This document shows, in pieces, positions 14,059 through 62,258 of a stretch of 64,000 bases of DNA. The stretch is from a virus: the IMG/VR virus record IMGVR_UViG_3300037294_000405, positions 32,001 through 96,000 of that record, one strand, 5' to 3'. Below the pieces are notes generated by a model, which was not told where the DNA came from, searched no databases, and saw only the letters and a list, made by a program, of their open reading frames with translations. Position 1 is the first letter of the stretch; every line of letters starts with the position of its first letter. A program made the position numbers and the translations under genes.

Positions 14059-14136
14059 TTAATAAACCCAGAACCCTAGTGGTCTGTATTTCATCGATGT
14101 ATTTAAGTCTGTTGCTTCTTTAGCACCTCTTTCTAA
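14059..14136 (-). pseudogene. displaced duplicate 3' end of the neck gene
   Basis: Translates LERGAKEATDLNTSMKYRPLGFWVY* versus LERGALEAGYLNTSMKYRPLGFWVY* at 15077-15154. Confidence 0.9.
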
Positions 14137-14185
14137 TTTTTTTTTTATCTTTTTAAATTTATCACATATTTATTATTAAAAAGAT

Positions 14186-15097
14186 ATGTGTATTAAAAGA
14201 ACAAACAGTAAAGGGACAACAGAGGGTTTTATAATTAAATCTAAAAACATTCACGGAGATAAATTTGATTATTCTAGAGTTATTTATATTAAAAGTAAAG
14301 AAAAAGTGAAAATTATTTGTTTATATCATGGGGAGTTTGAACAAACACCAGATAACCATATAAATAATAAGCAAGGTTGTCCACTATGTGCTAATAATGT
14401 TAAACTTTCCACTAAAGAATTTATAAAAAAATGTAACCAAATACATAATTTTAGATACGAATATTTAGTTACAATATATATAAATGATAAGACTAAAGTG
14501 TTAATAACTTGTAACTTACACGGTGTATTTGAACAAAAGGCTGGTAATCATTTTAGGGGGGATGGTTGTCCAAAATGTAGTGGTAATTATATGGATACAA
14601 ATTATTTTATTAACAAGGTTAAATTAATTCATGGGGGTAAGTATGATTATTCGTTAACTAATTATATATCACAACAAAAAAAAATAAAAATAATTTGTCC
14701 AAAACACGGTATGTTTAAACAAAACCCAAATAATCATATTAATGGTAATGGTTGCCCTATTTGTAAAGAATCTAAGGGTGAGCGTTTTATTAGTGAATTT
14801 CTAATAAATAATAATATTAATTTTATCCCACAATATAGGTTTAGTGATTGTAGGGATATATTACCATTACCTTTTGACTTTTATTTACCAGATTATAATA
14901 CATGTATCGAATTTAATGGGAGACAACATTATATACCAATAAAAATTTGGGGTGGGGATAATACTTTAAAAGAAATTAAGAAAAGAGATAAGATAAAAAT
15001 GGAATATTGTACCACTAACAATATTCCATTAATAAGTATTAAATATAATCAAAACATATTATCTAAATTGAATTATTTAATAAACCCAAAAACCTAA
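14186..15097 (+). mobile_element. free-standing putative homing endonuclease (repeated CxxH...GCPxC zinc modules plus C-terminal PD-(D/E)XK / Vsr-like nuclease)
   Basis: Three IICxxHGxFxQ...H...GCPxC repeats; ESKGE...PFDFYLP...IEFNGRQHY nuclease motif. Confidence 0.85.
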
Positions 15098-16216
15098 AGG
15101 TCTGTATTTCATCGATGTATTTAAGTATCCAGCCTCAAGAGCTCCACGTTCTAGTTGTGTTGTGGATGAAAGTCTAAGTAGTCTAGCCTCCAATCTTTCT
15201 AACACAGCTTTTTTCTCTTCATTACCTTCGGAGATAAGTGTTTCATAATCCATAGTTCTTTCTGCTTCTGGAGGTCCAACAACCCCACCAAACTTACCTC
15301 TAGTTCTACCTAAAGCTCTTTTAGCTTCTGCAATAAATAATTGACGAATAAGTGTTTTTGTTGGTTCGTTAAATTCAGCGTAATCTAATCTGGCTAAAGG
15401 GACTTGGTTTGGCATTTTAATTATATCTGGGTTATCCTCTTTACATTTATCTAAATTTTCTGGAGTCGTGTCATAATAATGATACCAAACTTGGCAACCT
15501 GTCATATTTATTGAGCTACCTACCCCACCCATTCCTTGTCCAAATGATAATTTAGAGCCAGGAGTACTCATTAAATGCAATAATTTAGTACCATTTGGAC
15601 CAGCAGTAACTTTGTGAACTAATTCACTTCTAACGATACGATTTTTTAAGTTCATATCGGCAGCCGTTAAAAGAATATCAAAAGCTGGTGCGATATAATA
15701 ACCTTGTCTACCGTTAGGACCACCTGTACCAACGCCACCACCTGTTTGTGCAAACCCACCACCAAAACCGTAATCAATACCACCATAGTTAGCCAATAAT
15801 GCTTGACTAGTTGGAGGAGGGGTAACCCATAATACTTCATTTATTTCACGACCAGCTGGAATAACATAAACTTGTCTACCAGCCTCAATTTCAACGTAGT
15901 CTTTTTTTAACTCCCACGGACCATTAGACTGCAAACCAACTTGTTTTGAGTACGCATAAGTATATTGTGTCATGAAATCAAAATTTCTAACACTCAAAGC
16001 AAATGCCATGTCTGTCGTATCTAAATTTTGCCCTAATAAAGATTGCCATTGGTGTTCAACTAACCATTCTTGGACATATTGAGCATAGTCCTCTATTGAA
16101 ATTTCTAATAGGGTACAAAGTTGCTCATCTTCCAATTCAATTTTACGCACTGGTGCGCCCAATGAATGTCTGAATTGTCGAAATAATTTTTCTTTTTCTT
16201 CTATAGTTACTGACAT
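15077..16216 (-). CDS. neck / head-tail adaptor protein (T4 gp13-like)
   Basis: N-terminal LGAPVRKIELEDEQL and C-terminal LGRTRGKF.G...G.EEK..L motifs characteristic of gp13-like neck proteins. Confidence 0.75.
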   Translation of the reverse strand: MSVTIEEKEKLFRQFRHSLGAPVRKIELEDEQLCTLLEISIEDYAQYVQEWLVEHQWQSLLGQNLDTTDMAFALSVRNFDFMTQYTYAYSKQVGLQSNGPWELKKDYVEIEAGRQVYVIPAGREINEVLWVTPPPTSQALLANYGGIDYGFGGGFAQTGGGVGTGGPNGRQGYYIAPAFDILLTAADMNLKNRIVRSELVHKVTAGPNGTKLLHLMSTPGSKLSFGQGMGGVGSSINMTGCQVWYHYYDTTPENLDKCKEDNPDIIKMPNQVPLARLDYAEFNEPTKTLIRQLFIAEAKRALGRTRGKFGGVVGPPEAERTMDYETLISEGNEEKKAVLERLEARLLRLSSTTQLERGALEAGYLNTSMKYRPLGFWVY

Positions 16217-16255
16217 AATAATTTTGTTTTATTATAAATATCAATAAGTTTTAAT

Positions 16256-16510
16256 TTAAGCTAAAAACTTCTTAGTTATCTCAACAGCTTCACTAATTGA
16301 TTGGAAGGAGACATTAGGTACCAATAATTGTCTATCTATTTTTATTACTGGGACTTCTTCAGCTTTTGAGACTTTAGAAATTTCATCCCATTCTTTAATA
16401 TTTTCTTCTAAGTTTATGTTTACGTCACGATATTTAATCCCTTGTGAATCGTAAATCTCTTTTAATTCCTTACAATAAGGGCATTCTGGGAAACTATAAA
16501 TTGTTATCAT
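16256..16510 (-). CDS. glutaredoxin / NrdH-like redoxin
   Basis: CPYC active site and VP motif, 84 aa. Confidence 0.9.
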   Translation of the reverse strand: MITIYSFPECPYCKELKEIYDSQGIKYRDVNINLEENIKEWDEISKVSKAEEVPVIKIDRQLLVPNVSFQSISEAVEITKKFLA

Positions 16511-16511
16511 A

Positions 16512-16739
16512 TTACATTGTTATTAAGTCATCTACCAATAAAGCAGTTATTTCATCTTCTGTTAATTTTTTATCACCCATAATTATATTGATGATGTCTT
16601 TTTTACTATTTAACATAGACCACATTCTACTCGAAATAGTATCGTCAAATAATTGATAGTAAACATTGACATCATTTTTTTGACCAATACGGAATGCTCT
16701 ATCTTCTGCTTGTTCATTGTTCCAATTATAAATCACCAT
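16512..16739 (-). pseudogene. duplicated alternative C-terminus of the SNF2 helicase (possibly translated as a 75-aa peptide)
   Basis: NNEQAEDRAFRIGQKNDVNVYYQLFDDTIS is 29/30 identical to the helicase motif VI region and then diverges. Confidence 0.85.
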
Positions 16740-18573
16740 TCAATATTTTTTGGATTAATAAATCTGTTTCATTTTCTTTGGTTATATTTTCAACACCTAA
16801 TATTATGTTAATTATTTCTTGTTTTTGTTTTAAAGTTTCCCACATCCTTATTGATATAGTGTCGTCAAATAATTGATAATAAACATTAACATCATTCTTT
16901 TGTCCAATTCTATACGCTCTATCTTCAGCTTGTTCGTTATTACCAGTAACCCAATCAAATGAGTTAAAAATAACCACAGTTGCTTCAGTAAGTGTGATAC
17001 CAACACCAGCAGATTTTATATTACCAACAAAAACTTTTACTTTATCATTGTTCTGAAACACATCAACTGATTTTTGTTTTTGTAATGTTGTCATTGGGCC
17101 ATTGTGTTTAACCGCCAATTTACCAAAGTGATTAGATATCATTTCTAATTCATCAGTGAAATTAGTGAATACTATCACTTTACGACCCATTTCAATAGCG
17201 TTTTCTACCATTTCAATAGTATAAGGGATAGCTTCTTGTGCGATAAATTGTCTAAGTAGGATAAGTTCAACTAAATCTTTTTGTAGGTTATCTGTTTTCT
17301 TACCCTCTAATTTTCTTTTTTGTAAGTATTCTTCCCAAAGTAATTCATATTGTTTAAGACCTTTTTTATCTAATATATGGTGCATAGGTGTCACTACTTT
17401 ATCTGGCATATCCAATACTTCAGTTTTTAAACGTCTAATAATAGTGTTTTTGGTTTTATTGGCTAATTCTTCTAAATTACTAGCACCATCAGTAAGCCAT
17501 ATTTGTTTTCTTTGACCATTCTTAAGGGTTCTAAAGAACTTTCTACCGTCACAATACCTTACAGCATAATGTTTCCAATTATCTGCGATAGGGGACTTAA
17601 TAATCTTTAAAAGATTAAAGAAATCCATAGGTCTATTTGCGACAGGTGTACCAGTTAACAACCAAACTCTCTCTATTTTTTCTTTAGCACAAAGTTCCAC
17701 CATTATTTTACCTCTAATACTTTCATTATTTTTTAAATAATGAGCCTCATCAATAATACATAAATCATAATTAGCGTTTATCAATTCTCTATTTAAAATT
17801 TCTTCTGGTTCACCTTCTTTTGGTTTTTTACCAGAAGATAAAGTATGGAAATTTTTAAGGATATCAAAATTAATTATCGTAAATTTAGCGTCACTCCATT
17901 TTTTACCGTCAATAATTGTTGTGTCATCACAAAAAACATTAATTTCACGCTCCCAATTAATTTTTGTTGATGATGGGCAAACAACTAATATTTTTTTAGC
18001 ACCGCTTTCTAAAGCGGCAACAATTGACTGAATAGATTTACCTAAACCCATGTCATCTGCTAGTATACAACCTTTCCTAGATAACAAAAACTTTATACCA
18101 TCTTCTTGATGTTGGTAAAGTTTTTTGTTATCTAAAGATAAAACTTCATTGTATTTTGAAAAATCAACGTTTACATTTATCGATTCAAAATATGGGTCAT
18201 CAGTTAGTTGTGTTTTAGGCAACCAATACATTTTAGACTCTTTTTGGTTTTGTTTTAGTTTACCGTATATATGAAATGTTTTATCTGTATCAGCAAGGAT
18301 GAATTCAATTAAAACTTTTTCTGGTGTAAAAGATAACTCATCTATTTTTTTTAGTTCTTCACCTAGATAAGGTGTTATACCAACAACCCTATTAATGAAG
18401 AGAGGTTCCCTTTCATGGTTTTCAGTAATGTATTTTGATTGGTTTTCAGTTAAAGCCAATTTATTATTTTTCAAAAAAGCTATTTTTAGTTTTTTGATGT
18501 ATGGATTTATCCCTTCATATGCCTCAAGCAATGAAATAGCTGAATGTCCTCGTATATCGTCTAAATTTATCAA
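16726..18573 (-). CDS. SNF2/SWI2-family helicase (HARP/SMARCAL1-like)
   Basis: LADDMGLGKS, IIDEAHYLKN, LTGTP, GVGITLT and QAEDRAYRIGQ motifs. Confidence 0.93.
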   Translation of the reverse strand: MINLDDIRGHSAISLLEAYEGINPYIKKLKIAFLKNNKLALTENQSKYITENHEREPLFINRVVGITPYLGEELKKIDELSFTPEKVLIEFILADTDKTFHIYGKLKQNQKESKMYWLPKTQLTDDPYFESINVNVDFSKYNEVLSLDNKKLYQHQEDGIKFLLSRKGCILADDMGLGKSIQSIVAALESGAKKILVVCPSSTKINWEREINVFCDDTTIIDGKKWSDAKFTIINFDILKNFHTLSSGKKPKEGEPEEILNRELINANYDLCIIDEAHYLKNNESIRGKIMVELCAKEKIERVWLLTGTPVANRPMDFFNLLKIIKSPIADNWKHYAVRYCDGRKFFRTLKNGQRKQIWLTDGASNLEELANKTKNTIIRRLKTEVLDMPDKVVTPMHHILDKKGLKQYELLWEEYLQKRKLEGKKTDNLQKDLVELILLRQFIAQEAIPYTIEMVENAIEMGRKVIVFTNFTDELEMISNHFGKLAVKHNGPMTTLQKQKSVDVFQNNDKVKVFVGNIKSAGVGITLTEATVVIFNSFDWVTGNNEQAEDRAYRIGQKNDVNVYYQLFDDTISIRMWETLKQKQEIINIILGVENITKENETDLLIQKILNGDL

Positions 18574-18684
18574 ATCTTTTTGTTTTTAGTCTTGGTGTAA
18601 TTATATATAAAGATAATAAAAATATAAATAAAAATCAATAGTTTGTGGTTATTAATAAAAAGATAAATATTTATAATTAAAACC

Positions 18685-19206
18685 ATGGACAATAAAAAAA
18701 TCACACCTATAACACGTATCAACAAGTTCTTTTCCGAAGAGGATTTTAACTTAGAGATTTCTATGGGTAGAGAGGCGATTGAAGGTGATGGAAATTTTAC
18801 TATTATATTGTATAGAGTTAATAGAGATATTAGCGAATATGATAATCTTTATGGTGAAGCATCTAAAGATGGTATTAGATTTTTTCCACCAGTAGAATTA
18901 AAAGTAATTCCTATTATGGCAACACCAGAAAACAAAGCATACAATAAAAATGGTGGGTTAAGGTATTTGCAAGATGGAAATTTAACATTTGGGATTTATG
19001 ATTCACAATTGTCAGAATTAGATACTATACTTAGCTACGGTGATTACATAGGTTACCCAGTTACTGAAACTGAAATTAGATATTTTAGTGTTGTTAATGA
19101 TGGGGTTAAGAATTACGATAACAAACATACTATTATGGGTTACAAAGGTGCTTTTAGAACTGTTGAATGTGCAGCAGTTGACGCTAATGAATTCAGAGGT
19201 TTATAA
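18685..19206 (+). CDS. head completion / neck protein (T4 gp14-like)
   Basis: LYGE..K....FFPPVEL...GDYI pattern; preceded by the late motif and followed by tail genes. Confidence 0.55.
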   Translation: MDNKKITPITRINKFFSEEDFNLEISMGREAIEGDGNFTIILYRVNRDISEYDNLYGEASKDGIRFFPPVELKVIPIMATPENKAYNKNGGLRYLQDGNLTFGIYDSQLSELDTILSYGDYIGYPVTETEIRYFSVVNDGVKNYDNKHTIMGYKGAFRTVECAAVDANEFRGL

Positions 19207-19220
19207 ATAAAATATAAGAT

Positions 19221-20279
19221 ATGGCAATGCCTAAAGGATATATAACCGACATAAATATAAAAAGTCAAAAAATTGGCCCAGAAAGAAGACAGGAAATTCT
19301 AGATGGTATTGCTGATAAAGGTACATTTTTACCTAAAGGTGTGTTGGAAGAAGATATGGACCAAAGTTTTATCGATTTTATGAATAACGATAAAGGGTTT
19401 TCGATTAGCGTTGGTGAAGATAAAATACCAGTAATTTTTTTAACCATACAACGATGGACTGAATTTACTAAAACATGGCAATTTACTGATAAATATAAAA
19501 ACATTGAAATGCCTTTTATAACTGTTGTCAGAAAACCAGATATTCAACAAGGCCAAAATCAAGCTGGTCTATGGAATATCCCAGGAAACAGAACCTATAC
19601 TTATATGAAAGTACCAACATGGGATGGTGTAAGACGTGGTGTTGATTTATATAAAGTTCCACAACCAACATCGGTAGATTTAACTTATGAAGTAAGAATT
19701 TTTACTAACAAAATGAAGGACTTAAATAAGTTCAATAGAAAAATTCAAAGAGCTTTTCAATCTAAACAATGCTATTTGAATGTAAACGGACATCCTATGC
19801 CTTTGCATTTAGAATCAATTGGTGATGAAAGTAATATAGATGATTTTGAAAATAGAAGGTTTTATGTTCAATTGTTTGAAATGAAATTGTTAGGTTATAT
19901 ACTAGATGAAGATGACTACGAAGTTATACCAACAATGAATAGAAATATATTAACTGTTGAGTCTGAAGACCCTAAAGTTTATGACAATAATATCATTAAA
20001 GAAACTAAAAAAGGTAATACAGTAACTTACGCTTTTGTTTTTAAACCAAGAGCTGAAACACAATTTTCTTTTATCGCACAATATTCTGTTAATTTTACAA
20101 ATATTATTGAGGTTGAAGATATAAGTAGAATAACAATAAAAATTAACGACATAGTTGTTTTTGACGGTTTAAACTTGAACACGCCCTTAATCGTTAATAG
20201 TAACGATACGGTTTTTGTTAGGGTTTATAAACCACTAGCAATTATAGGTTCGTTTAAATTAATAGGTAGTACAATATAA
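19221..20279 (+). CDS. tail completion / terminator-like structural protein
   Basis: P..VDLTYEVRIFT..MKDLN pattern reminiscent of gp15-like tail terminators; genomic position. Confidence 0.5.
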   Translation: MAMPKGYITDINIKSQKIGPERRQEILDGIADKGTFLPKGVLEEDMDQSFIDFMNNDKGFSISVGEDKIPVIFLTIQRWTEFTKTWQFTDKYKNIEMPFITVVRKPDIQQGQNQAGLWNIPGNRTYTYMKVPTWDGVRRGVDLYKVPQPTSVDLTYEVRIFTNKMKDLNKFNRKIQRAFQSKQCYLNVNGHPMPLHLESIGDESNIDDFENRRFYVQLFEMKLLGYILDEDDYEVIPTMNRNILTVESEDPKVYDNNIIKETKKGNTVTYAFVFKPRAETQFSFIAQYSVNFTNIIEVEDISRITIKINDIVVFDGLNLNTPLIVNSNDTVFVRVYKPLAIIGSFKLIGSTI

Positions 20280-20677
20280 TGAGTTATTTTTTCAACACAT
20301 CGGACATTAACCAAACATTTATTCTAGAACCTTTAGAAACAACTGGAGATACCACTACTTTATCTGCTTGTACAGCTATTTACACTAATAGATTGGTTGG
20401 TTGTGATGATAATGGAACAACAATAATTTTAAGCAATAATATAGAAGTAAGTAAAAGCATAATACCACTTATTGATGGGATGAATGATTTAGGGATACCA
20501 AGTCTTAGGTTTAGAAATATAAACACAATTAGTGGAGTATCTTCTGTTTGGACATCAACACAAAAAATAAACACACCAGAAATAGATTTAGGTTTAGACT
20601 CTATAGGTGAAAATAGAATAATCACAGCAGATAATTCAATTATACAAGAAGATAACTTAAATGGTGGCGAATACTAA
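20279..20677 (+). CDS. short tail-fibre-associated protein
   Basis: DLGIPSLRFRNI fibre-type motif; ends in LNGGEY. Confidence 0.6.
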   Translation: MSYFFNTSDINQTFILEPLETTGDTTTLSACTAIYTNRLVGCDDNGTTIILSNNIEVSKSIIPLIDGMNDLGIPSLRFRNINTISGVSSVWTSTQKINTPEIDLGLDSIGENRIITADNSIIQEDNLNGGEY

Positions 20678-20730
20678 AAAACCACATATTTATAATAAAA
20701 CAATAAAACAATAAAAAAAAATAATTAATT

Positions 20731-22461
20731 ATGGCAAATAGAATAACAACACACATATTAAAGAATAGTAATATTGTTAATCGACCATTACCAACATCTT
20801 TATTGGCTGGTGAACCAATAGTAAATACAGCAGATGGTATTGTTTACTTTTCTGGTGTGACAAGCTCTACAAATAACTGGGTTCCAGCTGGTGTTGGTTC
20901 AGCAGCAAACTTTTTTGAAGCTGGTTCTAATCTTTACGATTTACAATTAAGAAATAGAATTACTAAATATGAAGGCGTTTCTGGTGCTGGTTTAGTTGGT
21001 AAATTCTTATCTGGTACAACTAATGGGTTTGTCTTGGCAGACATTTCTAGTATTGGCGGTATTGACACATATGTAACTGGGTTTACATACTCAAATAACG
21101 TTGCTACAATTAAAAGAAATCAAGGTCAAGCTGATTTATCAATATTGATAAACACAATGACTGGTTTAACTGTCAACGGTACGTTAGCAGCTACAACTGG
21201 AAATATAACTACAATTAATACTGGTACTTTAAACGCAACAGGTGGTACTATCACAACGTTGGGTTCGACAACTGCTAATTTAGGGACTGCTAATATTACA
21301 ACAGCAAATGTTAATGCGTTAAACGCTACAGGTATAACTGTAACAAATAACGTAACAGCTACAACTTTCATAGGTAACCTTACTGGTTTGGCTTCATTGG
21401 CTACATCAGCAACCACTGCTTTGAATGCTACTAATGCAACATCTGCATTAAACACTACTAATGTTGGAATAACAAATAATACTACAACTAACGCAACATA
21501 TTATCCTACGTTTGTATCAGCAACATCTGGTAATTTACCATTACAAGTTGATTCAGCTGCGTTAACATTTAACCCTAGTACAAATACATTAACTGTTGCT
21601 AATTTAACTGGATTAGCAAGTTTAGCGACTAGTGCTACTACCGCTTTAAACGCTACTAATGCAGTAAATGCTCAAATTGCTAATAACGCACCTGTTAGTG
21701 GTACTTATAATGCTGGGACAATAACATTAACTAACCTAACTGGTGGTACGTTTAACATTACTGGTTTAAGTGGTACAGATACTTTTGTAACTGGATTTAC
21801 ATATTCACCAACAACAAATACTATTACTTTAGCTCAAAATCAAGGACAACCAAATAAAACTGTTTCTATAAACACGGTTTCTGGTTTAACTGTTTCTGAT
21901 TTAACAGCTAACAGACTTGTTTATACAACAACTGCTGGTAAATTAATTACAGGTACAGCAACATTTGATGGAACTAACATGGCGTTGCCAACAGCTGGTT
22001 CATTATCAGTTGGTACTGGTGGATTAATTGTTGGTAGTGGTGGTTCGGCTGGTATACCTGGTACTGGTGATGTAGTTATTAATGGTTCATTAACAGTATT
22101 TGGTGCTGGCGTTTCTGCATTTACTTCTCAATTATACGTAGAAGATAACAACATTACCCTTAATTTTAATCCAACAGGAAACACTACTGCAACGTCAATT
22201 GGTGCTGGTTGGACAATACAAGACGGTAACGGTGTTAGTGCTGGTAATGTTAATTTAGATATTAGAGCGATGAATACCTTTACAGGTTTAACATCAACTC
22301 AAATCCCTTCAATTGCGGAATATGGTGGTTCAACTGGTTATGCGAATAGAGCTTGGGTTACACAATTAAATGACGTTGTAATCAGAAGCACTAACGTAAC
22401 TACACCAAATGGTGTTAGAGTGTTGGCTGAGTTCGACATTTTAGATGGGGGTATTTACTAA
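20731..22461 (+). CDS. tail fibre protein
   Basis: N-terminal P..L..GE..VNTADG domain, T/A/N/G-rich repeats, DTYVTGFTY repeats, C-terminal LDGGIY. Confidence 0.78.
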   Translation: MANRITTHILKNSNIVNRPLPTSLLAGEPIVNTADGIVYFSGVTSSTNNWVPAGVGSAANFFEAGSNLYDLQLRNRITKYEGVSGAGLVGKFLSGTTNGFVLADISSIGGIDTYVTGFTYSNNVATIKRNQGQADLSILINTMTGLTVNGTLAATTGNITTINTGTLNATGGTITTLGSTTANLGTANITTANVNALNATGITVTNNVTATTFIGNLTGLASLATSATTALNATNATSALNTTNVGITNNTTTNATYYPTFVSATSGNLPLQVDSAALTFNPSTNTLTVANLTGLASLATSATTALNATNAVNAQIANNAPVSGTYNAGTITLTNLTGGTFNITGLSGTDTFVTGFTYSPTTNTITLAQNQGQPNKTVSINTVSGLTVSDLTANRLVYTTTAGKLITGTATFDGTNMALPTAGSLSVGTGGLIVGSGGSAGIPGTGDVVINGSLTVFGAGVSAFTSQLYVEDNNITLNFNPTGNTTATSIGAGWTIQDGNGVSAGNVNLDIRAMNTFTGLTSTQIPSIAEYGGSTGYANRAWVTQLNDVVIRSTNVTTPNGVRVLAEFDILDGGIY

Positions 22462-22560
22462 GACATTGATTATTAATTAGTTATAATTAATATTTTATTT
22501 AGACCGAGGAAACTATTGACTTTTAAAATACTTTTATTATATTAAAAATAAAAAATCGTC

Positions 22561-23337
22561 ATGAAAGGTATTTACAAAATTACAAATTTATCAAATAATA
22601 AAGTTTATATTGGTCAAACAGATAGACTTAATGAAAGAGAAAGAGAACATTTTTATCGTCTTGGTCGAAATGAACACCATAATGACCATTTACAAAAATC
22701 ATATAATAAACATGGTAAAAGTAATTTTAAATTTGAAATTATTGAGCAATCCGAAGATTTAGATAGTAGAGAAGTTTATTGGATTAATAAATATGGCGGT
22801 ATTAATTCTAAACTAAATTATAATTTAAAAGACCCATTAACAATGAAATGGTCAGACTATACTAGGGTTAAACAAAGTAAATCTATGATTGGTGATAAGA
22901 ATCCTAATTATGGTAATACATGGTCTCAAGAACAGAAAGATGTAGCATCTAAAAAAAGAAAAGGTGTTACTTTAGAAAATAGAATTGGTAAGGGTAAAGC
23001 TGATTTAACTAAACAAAAAATGAGCGAATCACAAATTGGAAGAAAACACCCAGAAGAAGTTAAAGAAAAAATACGACAAGCTAATGTTGGTGATAAGAAT
23101 CCAGCATATGGTAAAGGTGATAGACAAATTGGTGATAAAAACCCAATGTGGGGTAAAGCTAATAAAAATAGGAAGCCAGTTCAACAATATACTAAAGATG
23201 GTATTTTTGTTAAAGAATATGAATATCTGACACAAGTATTAGATGGCGGTTTTAACGTTGGTAATGTTGGTAATGTTTGTAATGGAAAAGCTAAATCAGC
23301 TGGTGGTTTTATTTGGAAATTTAAAAATAAAATATAA
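22561..23337 (+). mobile_element. free-standing GIY-YIG homing endonuclease with NUMOD3/NUMOD1-like DNA-binding repeats
   Basis: MKGIYKITN...VYIGQT...R; GDKNPxYG repeats; C-terminal KPVQQY...SAGGFIWKF. Confidence 0.92.
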
Positions 23338-23462
23338 CAAAAAGGGGCTTCGGTACATTTTTTTATTAACTAAACTTTATTTACAACATATTTATAATAT
23401 AATGGTTATATAACCAAAAAATTATAACACTTCTACATAGAAGTTTCATTAATACCATAGAT

Positions 23463-26039
23463 ATGGCAACTAGAAAAAATACATTTTTACTTAAACGTTC
23501 TAATGTCGCTGGAAATATACCAACAGCTGGACAAATACAATTAGGTGAATTAGCGTTAAACACTTCTGATGTTAAATTATACGCATCTGGAACGACAACC
23601 AATTCTATTCTACAAATAGGTTGGGATAGGGTATCACGAACAGGTGATACTATGACGGGAACTCTTTACGCACCAACTTTTACGGGTAACCTTAATGGTT
23701 TAGCTTCATTAGCTACATCAGCAACAACCGCTTTGAACTCAACACAACTGAACGGGCAATTAGCTTCGTTCTATTACCCAGCTAGTAACCCTAACGGATA
23801 TACAACGAATACAGGTACAGTAACTGCTGTTAATAACGGTAATGGTATGAACTTTAGTAATTTTACTACATCTGGTACGATTACTTTGGGTACACCATCA
23901 TCATTGACCCTAAGTAGTACGAATAGTGTTACAACAAATAGTCATACACATGCTTTTGCTCCTGGTGGGACAACTGGTCAATACATAACTGGTGCTGGAA
24001 CATTGGTAACGTTCCCAACAATACCTACTGTTAATGACGGTACGTTGAGTATGGCGACAAGTGGTATAGCTACGGGGTCTGCTTCGTTTACGGCTAACCA
24101 AGCTGGGGGTAGCACTTTTACTGTAAACGTACCAGCAACTAATTTAAGTATTGGTTCTAATACCTCAACAGTTGTTAGAGTTGATTCATCAACTGGTACT
24201 AATACTACATTACCTGTGGCCACAGTATCATTGGCTGGTGTGCTTACATCGACTGATTGGTCGACATTTAATGGTAAACAAACTCAAATTAATGGGACTG
24301 GTTTTGTTAAAGCAGTTGGTACAACGATAAGTTATGATAATAGCACTTATTATTTAGCTAGTAATCCTAACGGATATACAACAAATGTTGGTACGGTAAC
24401 TGCTGTTAATAGTGGTAATGGTATTAATTTCACCAACTTTAGCACATCTGGTACAATTACTTTGGGTACACCTTCTAGTACCACACTTGCTTCAACCAAC
24501 GCAACGACAACAAATAGTCATACGCATGCGTTTGCTCCTGGTGGAACAACAGCACAATATATAACTGGTGCTGGAACTTTGGTTACATTTCCAACAATAC
24601 CAACGGTGAATGATGGTGCTCTTACCCTAGCAACTAGTGGTATAGCTACTGGTAGTGCTTCGTTTACAGCAAACCAAGCTGGTGCAAGTACCTTTACGGT
24701 GAATGTACCAGCAACTAATTTAAGTATTGGTGTTAGTAGTGGAACACAAGTTAGGGTCGACTCCTCAACTGGTGCTGATGTTGACTTACCTGTTGCTAGT
24801 GCAACTTTAGCTGGAATTGTAACAACAGGTGCTCAAACATTTGCTGGGACAAAAACATTTAGTAGTACAATAAACGGTAGTGTTACTGGTAGTGCTGGTA
24901 GTGCAACAAATACTAATTTTGTTTATTTAAACGATACGAATACCAACGCTAATTTTTATATTTCTTTTGGCGATGTAACTAACAATTATTCTCGTTTGTT
25001 TACTGATGCTGCAAGTCTTTATTATAACCCTAGTATTGATACGCTTTACTCTAGTTATTTTGTGGGATTGGCATCAAACGCAACTGATTCGGTAAATTCC
25101 GCATTTGTTGGTATTAATAATACACCATCTACAAACGCAACATATTATTTAACATTTACCTCAAGTATTTCTGGGAATCAACAATTAAGAGTTGATTCAA
25201 GTACTTTAACATTTAACCCAAGTACTGATACGCTTACGGTTGCTAATTTAGCTGGTAACGCATCTACAGCAACTAATTCTGCAAATATCGCAGTTACTAA
25301 CACCACAACCACTAGTGGTACTTATTATTTAACATTTACATCTGGTGTTTCTGGTAACCAAGTTTTAAGAACTGATTCAAGTACTTTAACATATAACCCA
25401 AATACTAATGCGTTAGCTACTGGTATTTTAAGTGCAAGCGATTATGTTGAATGTGTTGGTTATGGTCAATTTAGGAGTGGTGTTTCTGGGGATAGAGTTT
25501 TTATTGGTGACCCATTTGGTAATGGCCCTGTTGGTGTTTGGGATGCATCATCCCAAAAAGATATAGCAGTTTTTAGGGTTAGTAATGGGATATTCTACTA
25601 CGCTAATCAAAAAATACAAAGTAGTATTAGCACAGGTTATGTTTCTATTGGTGGTAGCCCTACTGGTAATGGTAGATTTGAAGTAATTGGTGATAACGGT
25701 GCTGGTGTATCTATCTACGCTAGTGATGATATAGTAGCTTTCTCTGATGTATCAGTTAAAGAAAATATTAGACCAATTGTTGATGTTATTGGTAGAGTTC
25801 TAAACTCTAGAGGTATTATTTATGATAGAATTGATAGTAAAACTAAAAATAATATTGGTTTTATTGCACAAGAATTAGAGGAACAATTTCCAGAGTTAGT
25901 TGTGACCAATGAAGACGGTACAAAAGCAGTTAAATATCAAAACGCTGTGGCTGTTCTATTTGAAGCAGTTAAAGAGCAACAGAAACAACTTGATGGGATG
26001 CAAGAACAAATAAATAACATATTAAGTAAATTAAAATAA
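23463..26039 (+). CDS. long tail fibre protein with C-terminal peptidase S74 chaperone
   Basis: N-terminal LKRS...P...GELALNT.D, T/S/G-rich repeats, FSDVSVKENI...GFIAQELE...coiled coil. Confidence 0.85.
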   Translation: MATRKNTFLLKRSNVAGNIPTAGQIQLGELALNTSDVKLYASGTTTNSILQIGWDRVSRTGDTMTGTLYAPTFTGNLNGLASLATSATTALNSTQLNGQLASFYYPASNPNGYTTNTGTVTAVNNGNGMNFSNFTTSGTITLGTPSSLTLSSTNSVTTNSHTHAFAPGGTTGQYITGAGTLVTFPTIPTVNDGTLSMATSGIATGSASFTANQAGGSTFTVNVPATNLSIGSNTSTVVRVDSSTGTNTTLPVATVSLAGVLTSTDWSTFNGKQTQINGTGFVKAVGTTISYDNSTYYLASNPNGYTTNVGTVTAVNSGNGINFTNFSTSGTITLGTPSSTTLASTNATTTNSHTHAFAPGGTTAQYITGAGTLVTFPTIPTVNDGALTLATSGIATGSASFTANQAGASTFTVNVPATNLSIGVSSGTQVRVDSSTGADVDLPVASATLAGIVTTGAQTFAGTKTFSSTINGSVTGSAGSATNTNFVYLNDTNTNANFYISFGDVTNNYSRLFTDAASLYYNPSIDTLYSSYFVGLASNATDSVNSAFVGINNTPSTNATYYLTFTSSISGNQQLRVDSSTLTFNPSTDTLTVANLAGNASTATNSANIAVTNTTTTSGTYYLTFTSGVSGNQVLRTDSSTLTYNPNTNALATGILSASDYVECVGYGQFRSGVSGDRVFIGDPFGNGPVGVWDASSQKDIAVFRVSNGIFYYANQKIQSSISTGYVSIGGSPTGNGRFEVIGDNGAGVSIYASDDIVAFSDVSVKENIRPIVDVIGRVLNSRGIIYDRIDSKTKNNIGFIAQELEEQFPELVVTNEDGTKAVKYQNAVAVLFEAVKEQQKQLDGMQEQINNILSKLK
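23775..24810 (+). repeat. internal tandem duplication of a fibre module, 576-nt (192-aa) period
   Basis: ASNPNGYTTN...NSHTHAFAPGGTT...VPATNLSIG...VRVDSSTG starts at 23781 and again at 24357. Confidence 0.9.
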
Positions 26040-31947: not shown

Positions 31948-32067
31948 TTATTATTTCTAAGGCTAAAAAGATGGTAAACCTAAACCTAAAGCTAATAGAG
32001 GTAACCTAGTTAAGAGACTAAATATAATTAAAAAAAAACGAAGAAATTTTAAAACAATACAAATAAT

Positions 32068-52218: not shown

Positions 52219-52236
52219 TTTAAAATTAAACAAAAC

Positions 52237-52265
52237 AAAAAGAGGTGAGGAATTACCTCTTTTTT
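52237..52265 (+). terminator. intrinsic terminator
   Basis: AAAAAGAGGT-GAGGAATT-ACCTCTTTTT. Confidence 0.75.
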
Positions 52266-52304
52266 GTTCTAAAATAATAAACAAACAAATAAAATTTATA
52301 ATAA

Positions 52305-53417: not shown

Positions 53418-53448
53418 ATCTATTTATTAACCCTTTAAATGTTCTAAT

Positions 53449-54501: not shown

Positions 54502-54515
54502 AAAAAAACAACTAT

Positions 54516-55013: not shown

Positions 55014-55067
55014 TAATTATCATTAAATATTTATTATAACACAGGTGAAAAAAAATATAAAAATAGA

Positions 55068-56471: not shown

Positions 56472-56474
56472 CGC

Positions 56475-56509
56475 AAAATAAAATAAAATAAAATAAAATA
56501 AAATAAAAT
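56475..56509 (+). repeat. (AAAAT)x7 microsatellite
   Basis: Seven exact 5-nt units between the helicase stop and the nrdB start. Confidence 0.95.
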
Positions 56510-56528
56510 AACTATTTAATAAAAAAAA

Positions 56529-57482
56529 ATGACTGAACCAATATTAACTAACAACCCAAACAGATTTGTACTTTTCCCTATTGAACACCAAGATATTTGG
56601 GATTTGTATGAAACACAATTAAGCGCTATGTGGACAACTCAAGAAGTTGATTTATCTAAAGACATTGACCACTGGAATAATAAACTAACTGAAAAGGAAA
56701 GATTTTTTGTTAAAAACGTGTTAGCCTTCTTTGCTGCCAGTGATGGTATAGTGAATGAAAATCTAGCTATAAATTTCTTAAATGAGGTTCAATACACCGA
56801 AGCAAAGTTTTTTTATGGTTTTCAAATTATGATGGAAAACATACATAGTCAAATGTATTCCTTACTTATTGATACATACATTAAAGACACTAAAGAAAGA
56901 CAAGAATGCTTTAATGCTATTGAATACATGCCACCAGTTAAGAAAAAAGCTGAATGGGCGTTAAAATGGATTGAATCTGAATCTTTTGTTGAGAGATTAA
57001 TAGCCTTTGTTGCTGTAGAAGGTATTTTCTTTTCTGGTTCTTTCTGTAGTATTTTTTATTTAAAATCTAGGGGTTTAATGCCAGGTTTATGTGATTCAAA
57101 TACATTCATTTCTAGAGATGAAGCTATGCACGCTGATTTTGCCATTCATTTGTTAAATAACCATATAGTTGACAAACCATCTAAAGAAAGAATTAAAGAA
57201 ATTTTCTTATCTGCTTTAGAGATTGAGAAAGAATTTATTACCGAATCATTACCAGTTTCGCTTATTGGTATGAACTCTAATGTTATGAAACAATATTTAG
57301 AGTTTGTTGTTGATGGTTTATTACAACAATTAGAGTGTGATAAAGAATTTAATAGTAAAAACCCTTTTGAGTTTATGAATCAAATTGCTTTAAAAACAAA
57401 GGCAAATTTTTTCGAGGGTCGTTCAACGGAATATAAATCAGCTGATTTAAGTGGGCCAATCTCATTTGATGAAGAAATTTAA
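56529..57482 (+). CDS. nrdB: ribonucleotide reductase class Ia beta subunit
   Basis: [48 protein letters not shown]. Confidence 0.97.
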
Positions 57483-57499
57483 CATTAATAAATAAAAAT

Positions 57500-59074
57500 A
57501 TGCAAGTAATAAAAAGAAACGGTAATAAAATAGATTTCAACCCAAATAAAATTCTTACCAGAATAAAAAAACAATCCGAAGGGTTAAAAGTTAACGCTGA
57601 CGAGGTGTTTATAAAGGTTACGCAAGGTATTGCTGATGATATGACAACAAATGAGTTAGATGATTTGATTTCAGTCGTATCTGAATCATTAGCTATGAAT
57701 CATCCAGACTATTCAAAATTGGCTGCAAATATATCCATAACTAAATTACATAAAGAAACCGATGACTCGTTCATGAAGGCAATAAAAAAAATGTACAATT
57801 TAGGTTTATTGAATGATGTGTATTTTAATAAAGTTAAAGAAAATATAGAGTTAATCGAATCAACAATCGATTATTCTAGAGATTTTAATTTTGATTATTT
57901 TGGTTGGTGTTCTCTTAAAGACATATATCTTTTAAAAACAAAAGATGGTGTGATAGTAGAAAGACCACAACAAATGTATGTTAGGGTCGCTCTTATGGTG
58001 ACAGAAAACGCTGAAGATTTTATTGAAAAATACAATTACATAAGTAATCAAAAAGAAAGCCCAGCAACGCCTATAAAAATGAACATAGGAACAACAATTG
58101 GTCAAATTGCCTCGTGTAATTTATCGATTGTCCCAGATGATTCAACAGAAGGGTTATTAGATATCCTAGGTAGAATTGCTATATCATCATCAAAAGCAGA
58201 AGGTATAGGTTTAGCTATTTCAAATATTCGTTCAAAAGAAAGTAATGTGGGTAATTCAAACGGAAAAGCTGGTGGTATTTTAAAATACCTTAAAGTTGTT
58301 AATGAAACACTTAGATTCTGGAACCAAAGAGGTAAAAGACCTGGCTCTTGTGCTGTTTATATTGAACCATGGCATAAAGATGTTTTTGATGTTTTAGATA
58401 TAAGAAAAAAGACAGGTGATGATACTTTAAGGGCTCGTGACTTATTTTCAGCACTATGGATTCCAAATAATTTTATGAGAGCTGTTGAAACAAATGATGC
58501 TTGGTATTTATTCTGTCCAAACGACATAAAAGAAGCTGGTTTAAAGCCATTTTATGGTATTTATGGTAAAGAGTATGAGGAAGAATATAATAAGGCCGTA
58601 GAGATGGGTATTGGTACCAAAATTAAAGCACATGATTTATGGCTTAAAATTTTGGAATCACAAATTGAAACTGGTATGCCATATATGTGCTTTAAAGACC
58701 ACGTTAATGAGAAATCCAACCAAAAAAATATTGGTATGATTCACTCTAGTAATTTGTGTGTTGATGGTAAAACAATTATTAAAACAAAATATCATGGTAA
58801 GGAAGTTGATTTTAATATTTCCGATGTTGTTAACGATTTTAATGTAGAACACGGTATAGAAGTATTAAGTTATAATATTGAAACAAATAAACCAGAATAT
58901 AAAAAGATAACAAATGCTGCCTTAATGAATGAGTCAGCTGATGTTTTAAAGATAACTGATGAGGAAACTGGTAAACATATTATTTGCACACCAGAACACC
59001 AAATATTCACAAAAAATAGAGGATATGTGTTAGCTAAAGATTTAGTTGAGACTGATGTATTAGAAATATTTTAA
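57500..59074 (+). CDS. nrdA: ribonucleotide reductase alpha subunit, N-terminal half, fused to N-intein
   Basis: ATP cone (MQVIKRNG), ERPQ, SPATP, ASC, RPGS..VYIEPWH, ETGMPY and SSNL, followed by intein sequence. Confidence 0.95.
   Translation: MQVIKRNGNKIDFNPNKILTRIKKQSEGLKVNADEVFIKVTQGIADDMTTNELDDLISVVSESLAMNHPDYSKLAANISITKLHKETDDSFMKAIKKMYNLGLLNDVYFNKVKENIELIESTIDYSRDFNFDYFGWCSLKDIYLLKTKDGVIVERPQQMYVRVALMVTENAEDFIEKYNYISNQKESPATPIKMNIGTTIGQIASCNLSIVPDDSTEGLLDILGRIAISSSKAEGIGLAISNIRSKESNVGNSNGKAGGILKYLKVVNETLRFWNQRGKRPGSCAVYIEPWHKDVFDVLDIRKKTGDDTLRARDLFSALWIPNNFMRAVETNDAWYLFCPNDIKEAGLKPFYGIYGKEYEEEYNKAVEMGIGTKIKAHDLWLKILESQIETGMPYMCFKDHVNEKSNQKNIGMIHSSNLCVDGKTIIKTKYHGKEVDFNISDVVNDFNVEHGIEVLSYNIETNKPEYKKITNAALMNESADVLKITDEETGKHIICTPEHQIFTKNRGYVLAKDLVETDVLEIF
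58757..59074 (+). mobile_element. split intein, N-terminal part (105 aa)
   Basis: Block A CVDGKTII and block B ICTPEHQIFTKNRGYVLAKDL, then a stop codon. Confidence 0.93.
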
Positions 59075-59108
59075 TCTTTTTGTGATTTCCATTATATTTA
59101 TTGTTATA

Positions 59109-59867
59109 ATGGAAATCACAATGGAAAAAAAATATTACGTATACGCTTACCTGGACCCTAGAGAAATTGGTGAGTATAATTTTGGAAATTATATTTTTAA
59201 AAATAAACCTTTTTATATTGGAAAGGGTAAAGATAGTTCTAATAGGTTAGAAAAACATTTAAAATTAATAAAAGAACAAAATAAAGATTTAACAAATAAT
59301 ATTTATAAGTTAAATGTTATTAATCAAATATTAAAAAATGGGTTAGAACCCATAATAATAAAAATAGTTGAAGGGTTAGAAGAACAAACCGCTTATGATA
59401 TTGAAAGTTTATTAATAGATATAATGGGTTTTAGACATAATAAAAGTGGTATTCTAACCAATTTAACTAAAGGTGGGTTAGGTGGTGATACGTTTACTAA
59501 TAACCCAAATAAAGAAGAAATACGTGAAAAACATAGGTTAAACGCTACTGGTGTTAATAACAATATGTATGGGTTATCTTTAAAAGAACGACCATCACAT
59601 AAAGCTAAAATAAATGGTAATCATTGGAACTTAGGTAGAAAAGCTAATGATGAAACTTTAAAAAAGATGTCTATTAATAATACTAGAGAAAATAACCCAA
59701 ACGCTAAAACTGTTGTTAAAATGAGTGTAAATGGTGAAGAAATTGACACTTACTTAACTACTGTTGAAGCAGCTGAAAAGAATAATATTAAACATAAGTC
59801 TGGAATTAGTAGAGCTTGTAAACAAGGAACCACTGCTGGTGGTTTTAAATGGAAATTTAAAAATTAA
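59109..59867 (+). mobile_element. free-standing GIY-YIG homing endonuclease between the split nrdA halves
   Basis: YYVYAYLDP...PFYIGKG...R...H, LTNLTKGGLGG, C-terminal ISRACK...TAGGFKWKF. ATG at 59109 or 59121 is preferred over the GTG at 59082. Confidence 0.88.
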
Positions 59868-59872
59868 AATAA

Positions 59873-59971
59873 ATGATAAAAATAGAAAAATTAAACGAAA
59901 AAATACCAGTATACGATATTACTGTTGAGGATAACCATAATTTTTTTGGTAATGATATATTAGTACATAAT
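59873..59971 (+). mobile_element. split intein, C-terminal part (33 aa)
   Basis: MIKIEKL...VYDITVEDNHNFFGNDILVHN followed by Cys+1 (blocks F and G). Confidence 0.93.
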
Positions 59972-61027
59972 TGTTCGGAAATTATGGAGACGACCAATGC
60001 TGAAACAACAGCTATTTGTACACTTACTAGCATCCCAGTTCAAAAATATATTATAGATGGAGTTTACGACTTCATAGAATTAGGTAAAGTAGCACGTTCA
60101 ATAACAAAATCATTAAACATAGCTTTAGAGGTTAACGAATATTCAACACCAGAAGGTAGAAAAGGTGGTTTAGAACAAAGAGCATTAGGTATTGGTATAC
60201 AAGGTTTAGCAGATGTGTTTGCTATATTAAAATTAGCGTTCACTGGTGAAATAGCTAGACAATTAAATAAAGACATATTTGAAACGATTTATTTTAATGC
60301 TTTAAGTGAATCTTGTGCTTTAGCTAAAAAAACTGGGTTAACGTATGATGGTTACGAGGGCTCACCAATTTCTGAAGGCATTTTCCAATGGCAAATGTGG
60401 GGGTTGACTGAAGATAATTTATCTGGTATGCATGATTGGAAAGGGTTAAGAAAAGACATTAAAAAATATGGTGTTAGAAACTCTTTAGTTACAACATGCC
60501 CACCAACAGCTAGTTCAGCTCGTGTAATTGGTTCGAACGAAGCTTTCGAACCGTTCACTTCAAATCTTTATGTTCGAAGAGTGACTGGTGGTGAATTTGC
60601 TATGGTAAACAAACATTTAGTTAAAGATTTAGAGTCGGAAGGTCTATGGAATAGAGAAATTCTTAGTGAATTGATAAAAAATAATGGTAGTGTTCAAAAC
60701 ATACCAGTTATTAGTTTAGAGATGAAAGAAAGATATAAAACAGTTTGGGAGATTTCACAAAAAGCGTTAATTGAAATGTCTGCTGATAGAGCACCATTCA
60801 TTGACCAATCACAAAGTCTTAATATTTTCTTCAGCACACCTACCGTTGGTAAATTAACGACATCACATAATTTGTCTTGGAAATTAGGTCTTAAAACTGG
60901 TCAGTATTATTTAAGGAGTGAGTCCGTTGATATGAAAGCTAAACATTTAGCTATTGATATGACAAAACAAAAACAAGTAGAAAAACCTACCGAAAGTCAA
61001 TTTGAGTGTGTGGGTTGTTCAAGTTAA
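59873..61027 (+). CDS. nrdA: C-intein fused to ribonucleotide reductase alpha subunit, C-terminal half
   Basis: HN/CSEI, AICTL, RALGIGIQGLAD, PPTASS, FIDQSQSLN, GLKTGQYYLR, C-terminal CVGCSS. Confidence 0.95.
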   Translation: MIKIEKLNEKIPVYDITVEDNHNFFGNDILVHNCSEIMETTNAETTAICTLTSIPVQKYIIDGVYDFIELGKVARSITKSLNIALEVNEYSTPEGRKGGLEQRALGIGIQGLADVFAILKLAFTGEIARQLNKDIFETIYFNALSESCALAKKTGLTYDGYEGSPISEGIFQWQMWGLTEDNLSGMHDWKGLRKDIKKYGVRNSLVTTCPPTASSARVIGSNEAFEPFTSNLYVRRVTGGEFAMVNKHLVKDLESEGLWNREILSELIKNNGSVQNIPVISLEMKERYKTVWEISQKALIEMSADRAPFIDQSQSLNIFFSTPTVGKLTTSHNLSWKLGLKTGQYYLRSESVDMKAKHLAIDMTKQKQVEKPTESQFECVGCSS

Positions 61028-61044
61028 TAAAAGATAAATAAATT

Positions 61045-61070
61045 AAAGGGTCCAATAGGGCCCTTTTTTT
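61045..61070 (+). terminator. intrinsic terminator
   Basis: AAAGGGTCC-AATA-GGGCCCTTT followed by a T run. Confidence 0.8.
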
Positions 61071-61129
61071 ATTTCCCATATTTACTTATAAAAATTGTTT
61101 AGTATTATATTTATCAAATAAACACAATT

Positions 61130-61879
61130 ATGGCAAACGGTAAATACATAAACATAAATTACCCCAATATATACATATATGCTTTGGTTTCAGAAGAAGA
61201 CCAAAAAAACATTAAATATATTGGAGTAACTTCTAAAACACCTTCAAATCGATTAAGTAATCATATTTATGAAGCAAAAAAAACACCTAATAAAACTGAT
61301 AAAACAAAATGGATTACATCTGTAAATTATAAGTTAAAACAAATAATTTTAGATATTGTTGATTTTGAAACAGCATATTTTTGGGAACAATATTGGATAT
61401 CACAATTTAAAACATGGGGTTTTGTTTTAGTAAATTCAAATAATGGTGGTGGTGGTTTAGGTAAAAGAAGCATTGAATTTTCAGCTTGGTTAAGTAATAG
61501 GAATAAAGGTAATAAATATAATTTAGGTAAAACACATTCTGAAGATACTAAATTAAAAATGAGTAATAAAAAACTTGGTAAACCATCACCTAGAAAAGGT
61601 ATTGAAGTGTTAGAAAAAACCAAAGAAAAACAATCTAAAGCTAAAATAGGTAGTGTTGGTAATGCAACTGGTTTTAAACATACAGAAGAAACTAAAAATA
61701 AGAAAAGAAAAAAAGTTTTACAAATAAGTATTAATGGTCAAATAATAAATGAATTTACATCAGTATCTGATGTCTCAAATTATTTTTCTGTAAATATTTC
61801 TACTATATCAAAAAGATTAGATAAAAATAAAGAATATAAAGGTTTTATATTCAAAACTAAAATAGAAAACAATGGCTAA
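61130..61879 (+). mobile_element. GIY-YIG homing endonuclease fused to the first 12 codons of the gp25-like gene
   Basis: MANGKYININYP followed by YIYAL...KYIGVT....RL..H, EQYWI and NUMOD3-like GKTHSEDTK / GFKHTEETK repeats. Confidence 0.9.
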
Positions 61880-62258
61880 TGGTCGCTTTATAAACATAAA
61901 TTACCCCTTTAAGGATAGTAACAAAGGTTTTTTCTTAGATTTGAATGATGAAGATAGTCAAGCGATAAAAGCCGACCTTCTACATATAATATTAACTAGA
62001 AAAGGTCAAAGACTTTATAAACCAGACTTTGGTACTGATTTATTAAAATTTATCTTTGAACCACAAGATGGAATGACGTTAAATGCCGTTAAAGAAGAAA
62101 TTAAATCAGTAGTAAAACTTTATTTACCAAAATTACAATTAGATGAAATTTTAGTTGAAGAAGCTACCGAAAGCGAATACGCTGCTGTGTTCACTTTAAA
62201 ATATACAATAACAGATGCTGTTTTTACAACATCAGACATAGTAGTAGTAAAACTATAA
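61872..62258 (+). CDS. baseplate wedge protein (T4 gp25 / gpW-like)
   Basis: AIKADLLHIILTRKGQRLYKPDFGTDL..FIFEP. Confidence 0.88.
   Translation: MANGRFININYPFKDSNKGFFLDLNDEDSQAIKADLLHIILTRKGQRLYKPDFGTDLLKFIFEPQDGMTLNAVKEEIKSVVKLYLPKLQLDEILVEEATESEYAAVFTLKYTITDAVFTTSDIVVVKL

Follow-up and report, generated by a model that had tools for sequence, protein, structure and literature searches.

Duplicated gene ends beside homing endonuclease genes in an uncultured phage point to cassettes that carry a replacement for the terminus they sever

In this study, we analysed a 64,000-nt stretch of DNA (positions 32,001 to 96,000 of IMG/VR virus record IMGVR_UViG_3300037294_000405; hereafter the window) from an uncultured phage whose genome is one contig of 155,282 bp with 30.8% G+C. 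Three genes of the window, coding for a neck (head-tail-adaptor-like) structural protein, a gp25-like baseplate wedge protein and an SNF2-family helicase, possess one terminus in two copies. A preceding reading of the DNA, made from the sequence only and hereafter called the sequence-only reading, had proposed that these duplications arise from homing endonuclease genes that sit in essential genes and carry a replacement end. All three duplicated termini were confirmed, as was the layout, in which an endonuclease gene lies between the copies at the neck and gp25 loci and nothing lies between them at the SNF2 locus. Taking these data together with a comparison of about 160 related loci of uncultured phages, we conclude that the window probably contains, or has contained, free-standing homing endonuclease cassettes lodged inside genes, each gene being kept working by a carried copy of its severed end. 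Endonuclease-linked ends are called H-type and displaced native ends E-type. A cultured-phage collection searched with the window DNA and with the neck protein gave no match, and this phage group is known only from metagenomes.

Gene ends in duplicate at the neck, gp25 and SNF2 loci

At the neck locus, which was compared with 80 homologous loci of 75-92% identity, the last 26 codons of the working gene (15077-15154) recur in an orphan segment (14059-14136) on the same minus strand. The two copies share 23 of 26 residues and 62 of 78 nt, both end in TAA, and the match stands well clear of chance (tblastn E 2.6e-7). Most of the 80 loci are empty alleles in which the DNA polymerase stop comes 34-120 nt after the neck stop. 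The orphan corresponds to the working end of the empty alleles L017 and L018 (75/78 nt and 26/26 amino acids identical), whose flanks at this locus are 95-97% identical to the window. The hairpin terminator element directly follows the neck gene in the empty allele L017, and homology between the window and L017 (95.3%) picks up at 14138, no more than two bases away from the orphan's first base. The LEAGY signature of the window's working neck end occurs elsewhere only in L033 and in the endonuclease-free L043 and L044. L033 carries a homologue of endonuclease 1 (65% amino acid identity) with the same antisense overlap, a LEAGY-type end and the same form of right-hand junction (an A-run, then LERG codons), and the protein sequence of its orphan is identical to the end of its own backbone, L046, the flanks being 91-93% identical. 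The patterns in L033 and the window therefore indicate that the carried end travels with the endonuclease and that the orphan belongs to the recipient.

The neck protein itself has a weak match to PHROG 211 (head-tail adaptor, E 4e-7). Endonuclease 1 matches PHROG 559 (E 2e-81) and Pfam DUF4379 and contains three treble-clef zinc-finger repeats; for the catalytic fold, Pfam gave only sub-threshold matches to RAP and DUF2726. A structure model was built with 14 homologues (pLDDT 85), and Foldseek aligned its C-terminal domain with the catalytic domain of I-Bth0305I (3r3p; TM 0.66, probability 1.0) and with the Vsr endonuclease (1cw0; TM 0.53), the E values of the whole model being weak (0.02-0.04). 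Residues D231, E242, H248, D268 and K271 are invariant across the 14 homologues. Judging from the model, the nuclease domain appears to be Vsr/EDxHD-like.

Some further features border this locus. Homologues of endonuclease 1 (48-52% identity) lie between the glutaredoxin and neck genes in L007, L053 and L055-L061, where their 3′ ends overlap the glutaredoxin stop and tblastx found no duplication. The neighbouring family B DNA polymerase (10215-14024) is very long (1269 aa), and its C-terminal tail, highly acidic and poorly conserved, adjoins the neck orphan; no other flank of the locus is as weakly conserved. An apparent duplication of the neck N-terminus in L065 and L066 was rejected; it is a small upstream open reading frame (ORF) with a neck-like N-terminal segment (in L065 at 5001-5450, 49% identity over 45 residues) and no endonuclease nearby, and may be a paralogue or an old scar.

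At the gp25 locus the duplicated terminus is the start of the gene. The first 12 codons of the working gene (61872-61907) and the displaced copy (61130-61165) share 10 of 12 residues and 29 of 36 nt, and the 12-residue peptide, at 10 or more matching residues, occurs exactly twice in the six-frame translation of the window and not once in 20 shuffles. The displaced copy doubles as the beginning of endonuclease 2, whose Pfam GIY-YIG domain (residues 14-96; 29.2 bits, cut-off 22.6) comes directly after the captured 12 codons and whose stop lies 8 nt inside the working gp25 gene (ATGGCTAA). Endonuclease-free alleles start with MANGKY... (ATGGCNAAYGGNAARTAY) behind a conserved upstream stretch, TAGTATTATATTTATC..., and the displaced start is identical to that of the empty allele L081 at 33 of 36 nt. 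Relative to L081, the closest gp25 backbone, the window shows a clean insertion, with 95.7% identity up to 61164 and 94.9% from 61872. Within the gp25 gene, the first 36 nt alone differ (26/36 identical), later 36-nt bins being identical at 32-36 of 36 positions.

The 80 related gp25 loci include several near-duplicate contigs, so that counts at this locus overstate the number of independent alleles. An intact endonuclease is present at six of the 80, the window included (five distinct), at the same spot and with 63-71% identity. All of these endonuclease ORFs begin with native-type codons behind the conserved upstream stretch, and in every such allele the working gp25 start, ATGGCTAATGGTCGNTWT (MANGR[FY]), directly follows the endonuclease 3′ end. 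Seven other loci (three distinct) hold endonuclease fragments only and have retained the ATGGCTAATGGTCGNTWT start, this 18-mer being found at 13 of 13 loci with an intact or decayed endonuclease and at none of the endonuclease-free alleles. In almost every endonuclease-free relative gp25 is preceded by the core TA(T/C)(T/C/G/A)ATATTTAT, which in all alleles with an endonuclease precedes the endonuclease instead. Our argument for an upstream element at gp25 is drawn solely from this conservation and not from counts of TATATTTAT, which was tried as a promoter motif and proved too weak to define a promoter class (11 occurrences against 5.95 expected, 4 of 100 shuffles reaching 11).

At the SNF2 locus, about 70 codons are repeated in tandem (16512-16721 and 16726-16941) with nothing in between. 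The orphan copy (tblastn E 3.7e-21) corresponds to the working terminus found in empty alleles, L002 and L014 among them. L017 and the window are 96.4% and 96.6% identical on the two sides of a 2.5-kb cassette in L017, the orphan and its flank being 96.6% identical between the two. The window equals L017 minus these 2.5 kb, removed precisely between two ATTTATAAT repeats. Since L017 holds the cassette between the copies and the window has lost it between the 9-nt repeats, the tandem repeat is a deletion scar, as the sequence-only reading had supposed for a locus that has shed its endonuclease.

Eight SNF2 loci show an H-type end (...ILGV...QKILNGDL-like), then a cassette on the opposite strand, then an orphan E-type end. 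The cassette codes for an EndoVII/HNH-type nuclease (PHROG 1035, E 2.5e-25) and for a weakly Arc-like protein. Every one of the 12 H-type loci (11 relatives and the window) carries the cassette, its remains (L035, for example, has an H-type end and a scrap of the nuclease gene) or a tandem scar. No cassette was found at the 67 loci with non-H ends, five of which have motif VI interrupted by an intein. A tree built from the terminal segments groups every H-type end in one clade (support 100/99), which also includes the endonuclease-free L080, and scatters the orphans among endonuclease-free alleles. Immediately 5′ of the junction, H alleles read WVTG and E alleles WVPG.

Other mobile elements have reached the same gene in relatives. 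A TnpB-like transposase gene (PHROG 506, E 6e-32) lies within the SNF2 endonuclease cassette of L017 (1030-2196), the nearest relative of the window. Contiguous inteins occur at the P-loop (after GLGK) and at motif VI (after DRA, ahead of ...RIGQ), for example in L004 (2053-3702) and in L050, L054 and L064 (~3460-4706). The motif VI site is about eight codons from the junction of the EndoVII/HNH cassette, indicating that two kinds of selfish element have settled on the same conserved motif. An apparent mid-gene duplication at SNF2 residues ~180-194 in relatives was traced to an intein and is not a terminus replacement.

Several claims of the sequence-only reading can be judged from the three loci jointly. 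Empty alleles had been expected to resemble the displaced copy, and at neck, gp25 and SNF2 they do, rather than resembling the endonuclease-borne copy. Carried end and endonuclease move as a unit across different backbones, with orphans that follow each recipient backbone, and the swapped end stays on the core protein after the endonuclease has decayed or been lost (gp25 and SNF2 loci), in line with the proposed exchange of termini. Both gene ends are used, the C-terminal one at neck and SNF2 and the N-terminal one at gp25. Two points required correction: the nuclease families number three and not two (Vsr/EDxHD-like, GIY-YIG and EndoVII/HNH, the last seen in relatives only), and the description of the carried ends as "recoded" was overstated, their divergence being about that of natural lineages. 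Empty, occupied, decayed and scar alleles are all represented across the three sites, an unusually complete comparative series.

Similar arrangements were found at other genes. In L163 and L164, a member of the endonuclease 1 family overlaps the stop of a 302-aa structural gene in antisense and flanks a 41-codon duplication of its C-terminus; in L176, another member, likewise with an antisense overlap of the stop, flanks a 51-codon C-terminal duplication of a 177-aa gene. In the genome studied here, but outside the window (C1:117419-120074), both termini of ruvC have been invaded. Upstream of a gene pair coding for RHH and GIY-YIG proteins there is an orphan start, and an antisense HNH gene overlapping the ruvC stop is followed downstream by an orphan end of 45 codons. 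LAGLIDADG and GIY-YIG cases elsewhere in the genome gave matches of only 8-9 residues and were not counted.

Table 1. Features of the three loci, in window coordinates
Feature	Position	Strand	Remarks
Native hairpin terminator	14025..14058	.	GGGGCGTAAGCCCC + T-run; between neck orphan and DNA polymerase stop
Displaced native (E-type) neck 3′ end	14059..14136	-	Orphan without start codon
Endonuclease 1 upstream region, right-hand insert junction	14137..14185	.	A-run at its end abuts orphan
Homing endonuclease 1, 303 aa	14186..15097	+	Antisense to neck gene; 21-nt overlap of neck stop
Replacement (H-type) neck 3′ end	15077..15154	-	...LERGALEAGYLNTSMKYRPLGFWVY, then stop
Working neck/head-tail-adaptor-like structural gene, 379 aa	15077..16216	-	ORF; terminus endonuclease-linked (H-type)
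Displaced native (E-type) SNF2 3′ end, 75-aa orphan ORF	16512..16739	-	ATG created by deletion
Deletion joint	16725..16733	-	Single ATTTATAAT left (9-nt repeat); junctions of window, L017 and L001 compared
H-type SNF2 end, last ~70 codons	16726-16941	-	Endonuclease-linked
SNF2-family helicase gene, 615 aa	16726..18573	-	Pfam SNF2-rel_dom, Helicase_C
Native gp25 upstream region, conserved TAGTATTATATTTATC...	61100..61129	+	Now ahead of endonuclease 2 ORF
Displaced native (E-type) first 12 gp25 codons	61130..61165	+	Also first 12 codons of endonuclease 2
Homing endonuclease 2 (GIY-YIG + NUMOD3), 249 aa	61130..61879	+	Pfam; PHROG 314
Replacement (H-type) first 12 gp25 codons	61872..61907	+	ATG overlaps endonuclease stop (ATGGCTAA)
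Working gp25-like baseplate wedge gene, 128 aa	61872..62258	+	Pfam GPW_gp25, E 7e-12

Proposed homing route and alternative explanations

The cassettes take two forms. The C-terminal form (neck and SNF2) consists of the gene body, the carried end, an opposite-strand endonuclease gene that abuts or overlaps the stop, and the stranded native end. In the N-terminal form (gp25), the endonuclease ORF continues in frame from the first 12 native codons behind the native promoter region and would be expressed from the host gene's own signals; the carried gp25 start overlaps the endonuclease stop, and gp25 is therefore probably translated by coupling. During co-infection with a cassette-free relative, the nuclease would cut the relative's allele near the junction, repair would copy the carried end together with the endonuclease, with one homology arm in the gene body and the other in the native end, and the recipient's own end would turn into a new orphan. 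The carried end is presumed to be immune through substitutions at or within ~30 nt of the junction, and the alleles offer candidate target or immunity positions for these uncharacterised nucleases, among them the Pro to Thr change (CCN to ACT) in SNF2 WVPG, codons 2-6 of gp25 and the change from AKEATD to ALEAGY in neck. Later degeneration or deletion of the endonuclease would fix the swapped end, with or without a tandem orphan, as at SNF2 in the window.

A number of observations weigh against this proposal. Target sites and immunity are deduced from the positions of H-versus-E substitutions alone, and the divergence of the carried ends does not exceed that among natural lineages. H-like ends without an endonuclease occur in L043 and L044 (neck), L080 (SNF2) and, in part, L118 (gp25); these lineages may be sources of the carried ends or old scars, and recoding for resistance would be no more than a possibility. 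Only two endonuclease-bearing neck alleles were found, those of the window and L033. The window's neck gene body, divergent from that of L017 although the flanks are so similar, is a patchy mosaic (64-98% identity per bin) and not a clean conversion tract; the divergence, like the clean insertions relative to the closest backbones, would be compatible with unidirectional transfer and co-conversion of the flanks. In L038 and L040, the SNF2 cassette stands beside an H-type end with no orphan, and the duplication is therefore derived and not obligatory. Relatives of endonuclease 1 lack a flanking duplication at 36 of the 42 loci with usable flanks (tblastx E < ~1e-2 to 1e-3) and have one at the other six, at three sites. 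The homologue in Cronobacter phage GAP32 overlaps the start of the next gene and is accompanied by no duplication. Some cultured jumbo phages are rich in this endonuclease family, Klebsiella phage KP13-7 having 18 matches. A metagenome scan with endonuclease 1 gave no duplication at any of 17 loci with usable flanks and no more neck-site alleles, the best match being 53% identical. In addition, ordinary recombination during co-infection could move a cassette without nuclease activity.

The strongest alternative is that the duplications are neutral by-products of intergenic endonucleases homing imprecisely, through one-sided or microhomology-mediated repair, the duplication being not heritable and having no role in spread. 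This would suit the many endonuclease 1 relatives without a duplication and the orphans, which have no start codon or evident function, and the orphan-free cassettes of L038 and L040 could represent the ancestral intergenic state. Nevertheless, we regard it as unlikely. At each site, cassette copies that have diverged from one another show the same junction on different backbones (eight SNF2 loci with about five distinct backbones, two neck backbones and five distinct gp25 loci), and the orphan matches its own backbone each time, which suggests that the architecture is copied and regenerated with each transfer and does not stem from independent accidents.

General recombination between diverged phages, with passive or inactive endonucleases and with unequal crossing-over between gene ends as the source of the duplications, seems to us very unlikely, even though the phage family is highly mosaic, as the neck gene of the window illustrates. 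H-type ends are linked to the endonuclease at 12 of 12 SNF2 and 13 of 13 gp25 loci, the endonuclease ORFs are intact with conserved residues in the catalytic domain, and the insertions are clean and precise relative to the closest backbones; moreover, unequal crossing-over would not put a foreign gene of 0.7-2.5 kb between the copies. Finally, the source being uncultured, two strains that differ in their gene ends might have been stitched into one contig, a chimera that the sequence-only reading had itself considered; this is highly improbable because the same architectures recur in independent metagenome contigs from other samples (L033 for neck; L090, L091, L098, L145 and L160 for gp25; eight SNF2 loci), and the orphans occupy the position of the native end in empty alleles, beside the native terminator or the next gene.

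Homing by endonucleases that carry a copy of the severed end thus appears to us the best account of the three loci. Whether the carriage of a spare end is a general, adaptive mode of homing in large phages, and not an accident, is a separate matter, and we offer that idea only tentatively, with more doubt than conviction. If it were true, the cassette would have a homology arm of its own in the stranded native end and could invade coding sequence even where the DNA further downstream has diverged too far for recombination. Expression of the host gene would be tied to the element wherever its stop is overlapped in antisense or its promoter and start have been captured with a stop-start overlap, so that clean loss would be costly. 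Repeated swapping of core phage protein ends between lineages would follow as a side effect, and small orphan ORFs that confuse annotation would be left behind.

Introns, inteins and repeats in the window

The endonucleases belong to recognised nuclease families and lie outside introns and inteins. A scan of the whole window with Rfam at gathering scores returned no match, so no group I or group II intron reached threshold, and no intein match was found at the three loci, where the host ORFs are continuous. The sole intein match of the window is in the ribonucleotide reductase gene. Its large subunit (57500-61027) is split by a split intein, the C-terminal piece of which ends in ...VHN and is followed by CSEIM, and the gap holds a GIY-YIG (LEM-3-like) endonuclease gene (59082-59867), an arrangement of the "fractured gene" kind. 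In the closest relatives, the reductase gene contains another split intein further along, accompanied by an endonuclease or a remnant of one (between CPPTAS and C...; L081:1925-3897 and L147:1158-3838), which the window lacks. An apparent mid-gene duplication at reductase residues ~195-214 in relatives is this second split intein and not a terminus replacement. Putative fibre genes of the window (6731-7201 and 21000-25400) contain long internal repeats (SHAEG-type; units of ~140 residues) that are unrelated to the endonucleases.

Comparison with known homing systems

Among known systems, the mobile endonuclease ORF (mORF) of fungal mitochondria comes closest, and the principle is already known from organelles. 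Such mORFs make "gene hybrids" of atp6 in Allomyces macrogynus and of atp6, atp9, cox2 and nad3 in Glomus sp. (Beaudet et al., 2013; PMC3630166), and C-terminal duplications with endonuclease ORFs have been reported in Endoconidiophora resinifera (PMC6279837). In both the fungal and the phage cases, an endonuclease ORF lies in the 3′ part of a gene and brings with it a foreign C-terminus in frame, the native one is left behind downstream, and the native copy is nearest to close relatives, the carried copy being more diverged. There are also differences. The setting is a phage genome and not an organelle. The C-terminal cassettes of the phage are antisense and overlap the stop, whereas the fungal atp6 and nad3 mORFs are in phase and co-transcribed, the gp25 form being the only one with an in-phase endonuclease among the window's cases. 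The phage also has an N-terminal mirror form, in which the promoter region and first codons are captured and stop and start overlap. The phage nucleases are of the Vsr/EDxHD-like, GIY-YIG and EndoVII/HNH kinds, those of fungi LAGLIDADG and GIY-YIG. In addition, a full series of invasion, decay and scar is visible among the phage relatives.

Free-standing endonucleases of phage T4, such as SegF, SegG, MobE and others, spread by intronless homing (Edgell, Gibb and Belfort, 2010; PMC2988022). As in that system, the endonucleases described here lie outside introns and inteins, are sporadic among relatives, and presumably use host promoters and act through a double-strand break in the endonuclease-less allele and repair with co-conversion of the flanks. 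The Seg and Mob genes of T4 are described as intergenic; here, by contrast, the elements have inserted within coding sequence and themselves provide the end that the gene would otherwise lack. Duplicated gene ends are absent from the review of T4 intronless homing and gene splitting (PMC2988022), and we found no description of phage endonuclease-linked terminal duplications in the full-text literature, the coverage of which was incomplete, so that novelty is unproven.

Endonucleases inside essential, working genes have precedents in mobE within nrdA of Aeromonas phage Aeh1 ("genes in pieces") and in mobA with the gene 60 bypass segment of T4. These genes are split into two polypeptides or rely on ribosomal bypassing, but the proteins studied here remain undivided, a substitute end being provided by the cassette. 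The bypass segment of T4 gene 60 reportedly protects against MobA. Another related arrangement is that of "fractured genes", in which a free-standing endonuclease occupies the gap of a split intein (Dassa et al., 2009; PMC2677866). The window contains one in its ribonucleotide reductase gene (59082-61027), and endonuclease 1 is predicted to have the Vsr-like fold of I-Bth0305I. The latter represents the endonuclease family of fractured-gene loci. In contrast to fractured genes, no intein or protein splicing is involved at the three loci, and repair would take place at the DNA level by duplication of the gene end.

The phage cassettes, if our reading is right, would account for short orphan ORFs and tandem repeats at phage gene ends, which are likely to have been annotated as hypothetical genes or taken for assembly errors, and would constitute a force by which core proteins (neck, baseplate and helicase) trade their termini between lineages. 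Together with the fungal mORFs, they suggest that, besides introns and inteins, there is a third route into essential coding sequence, a DNA-level patch that serves phages and fungal mitochondria alike, can be applied at either end of a gene and is used by three or more nuclease families.

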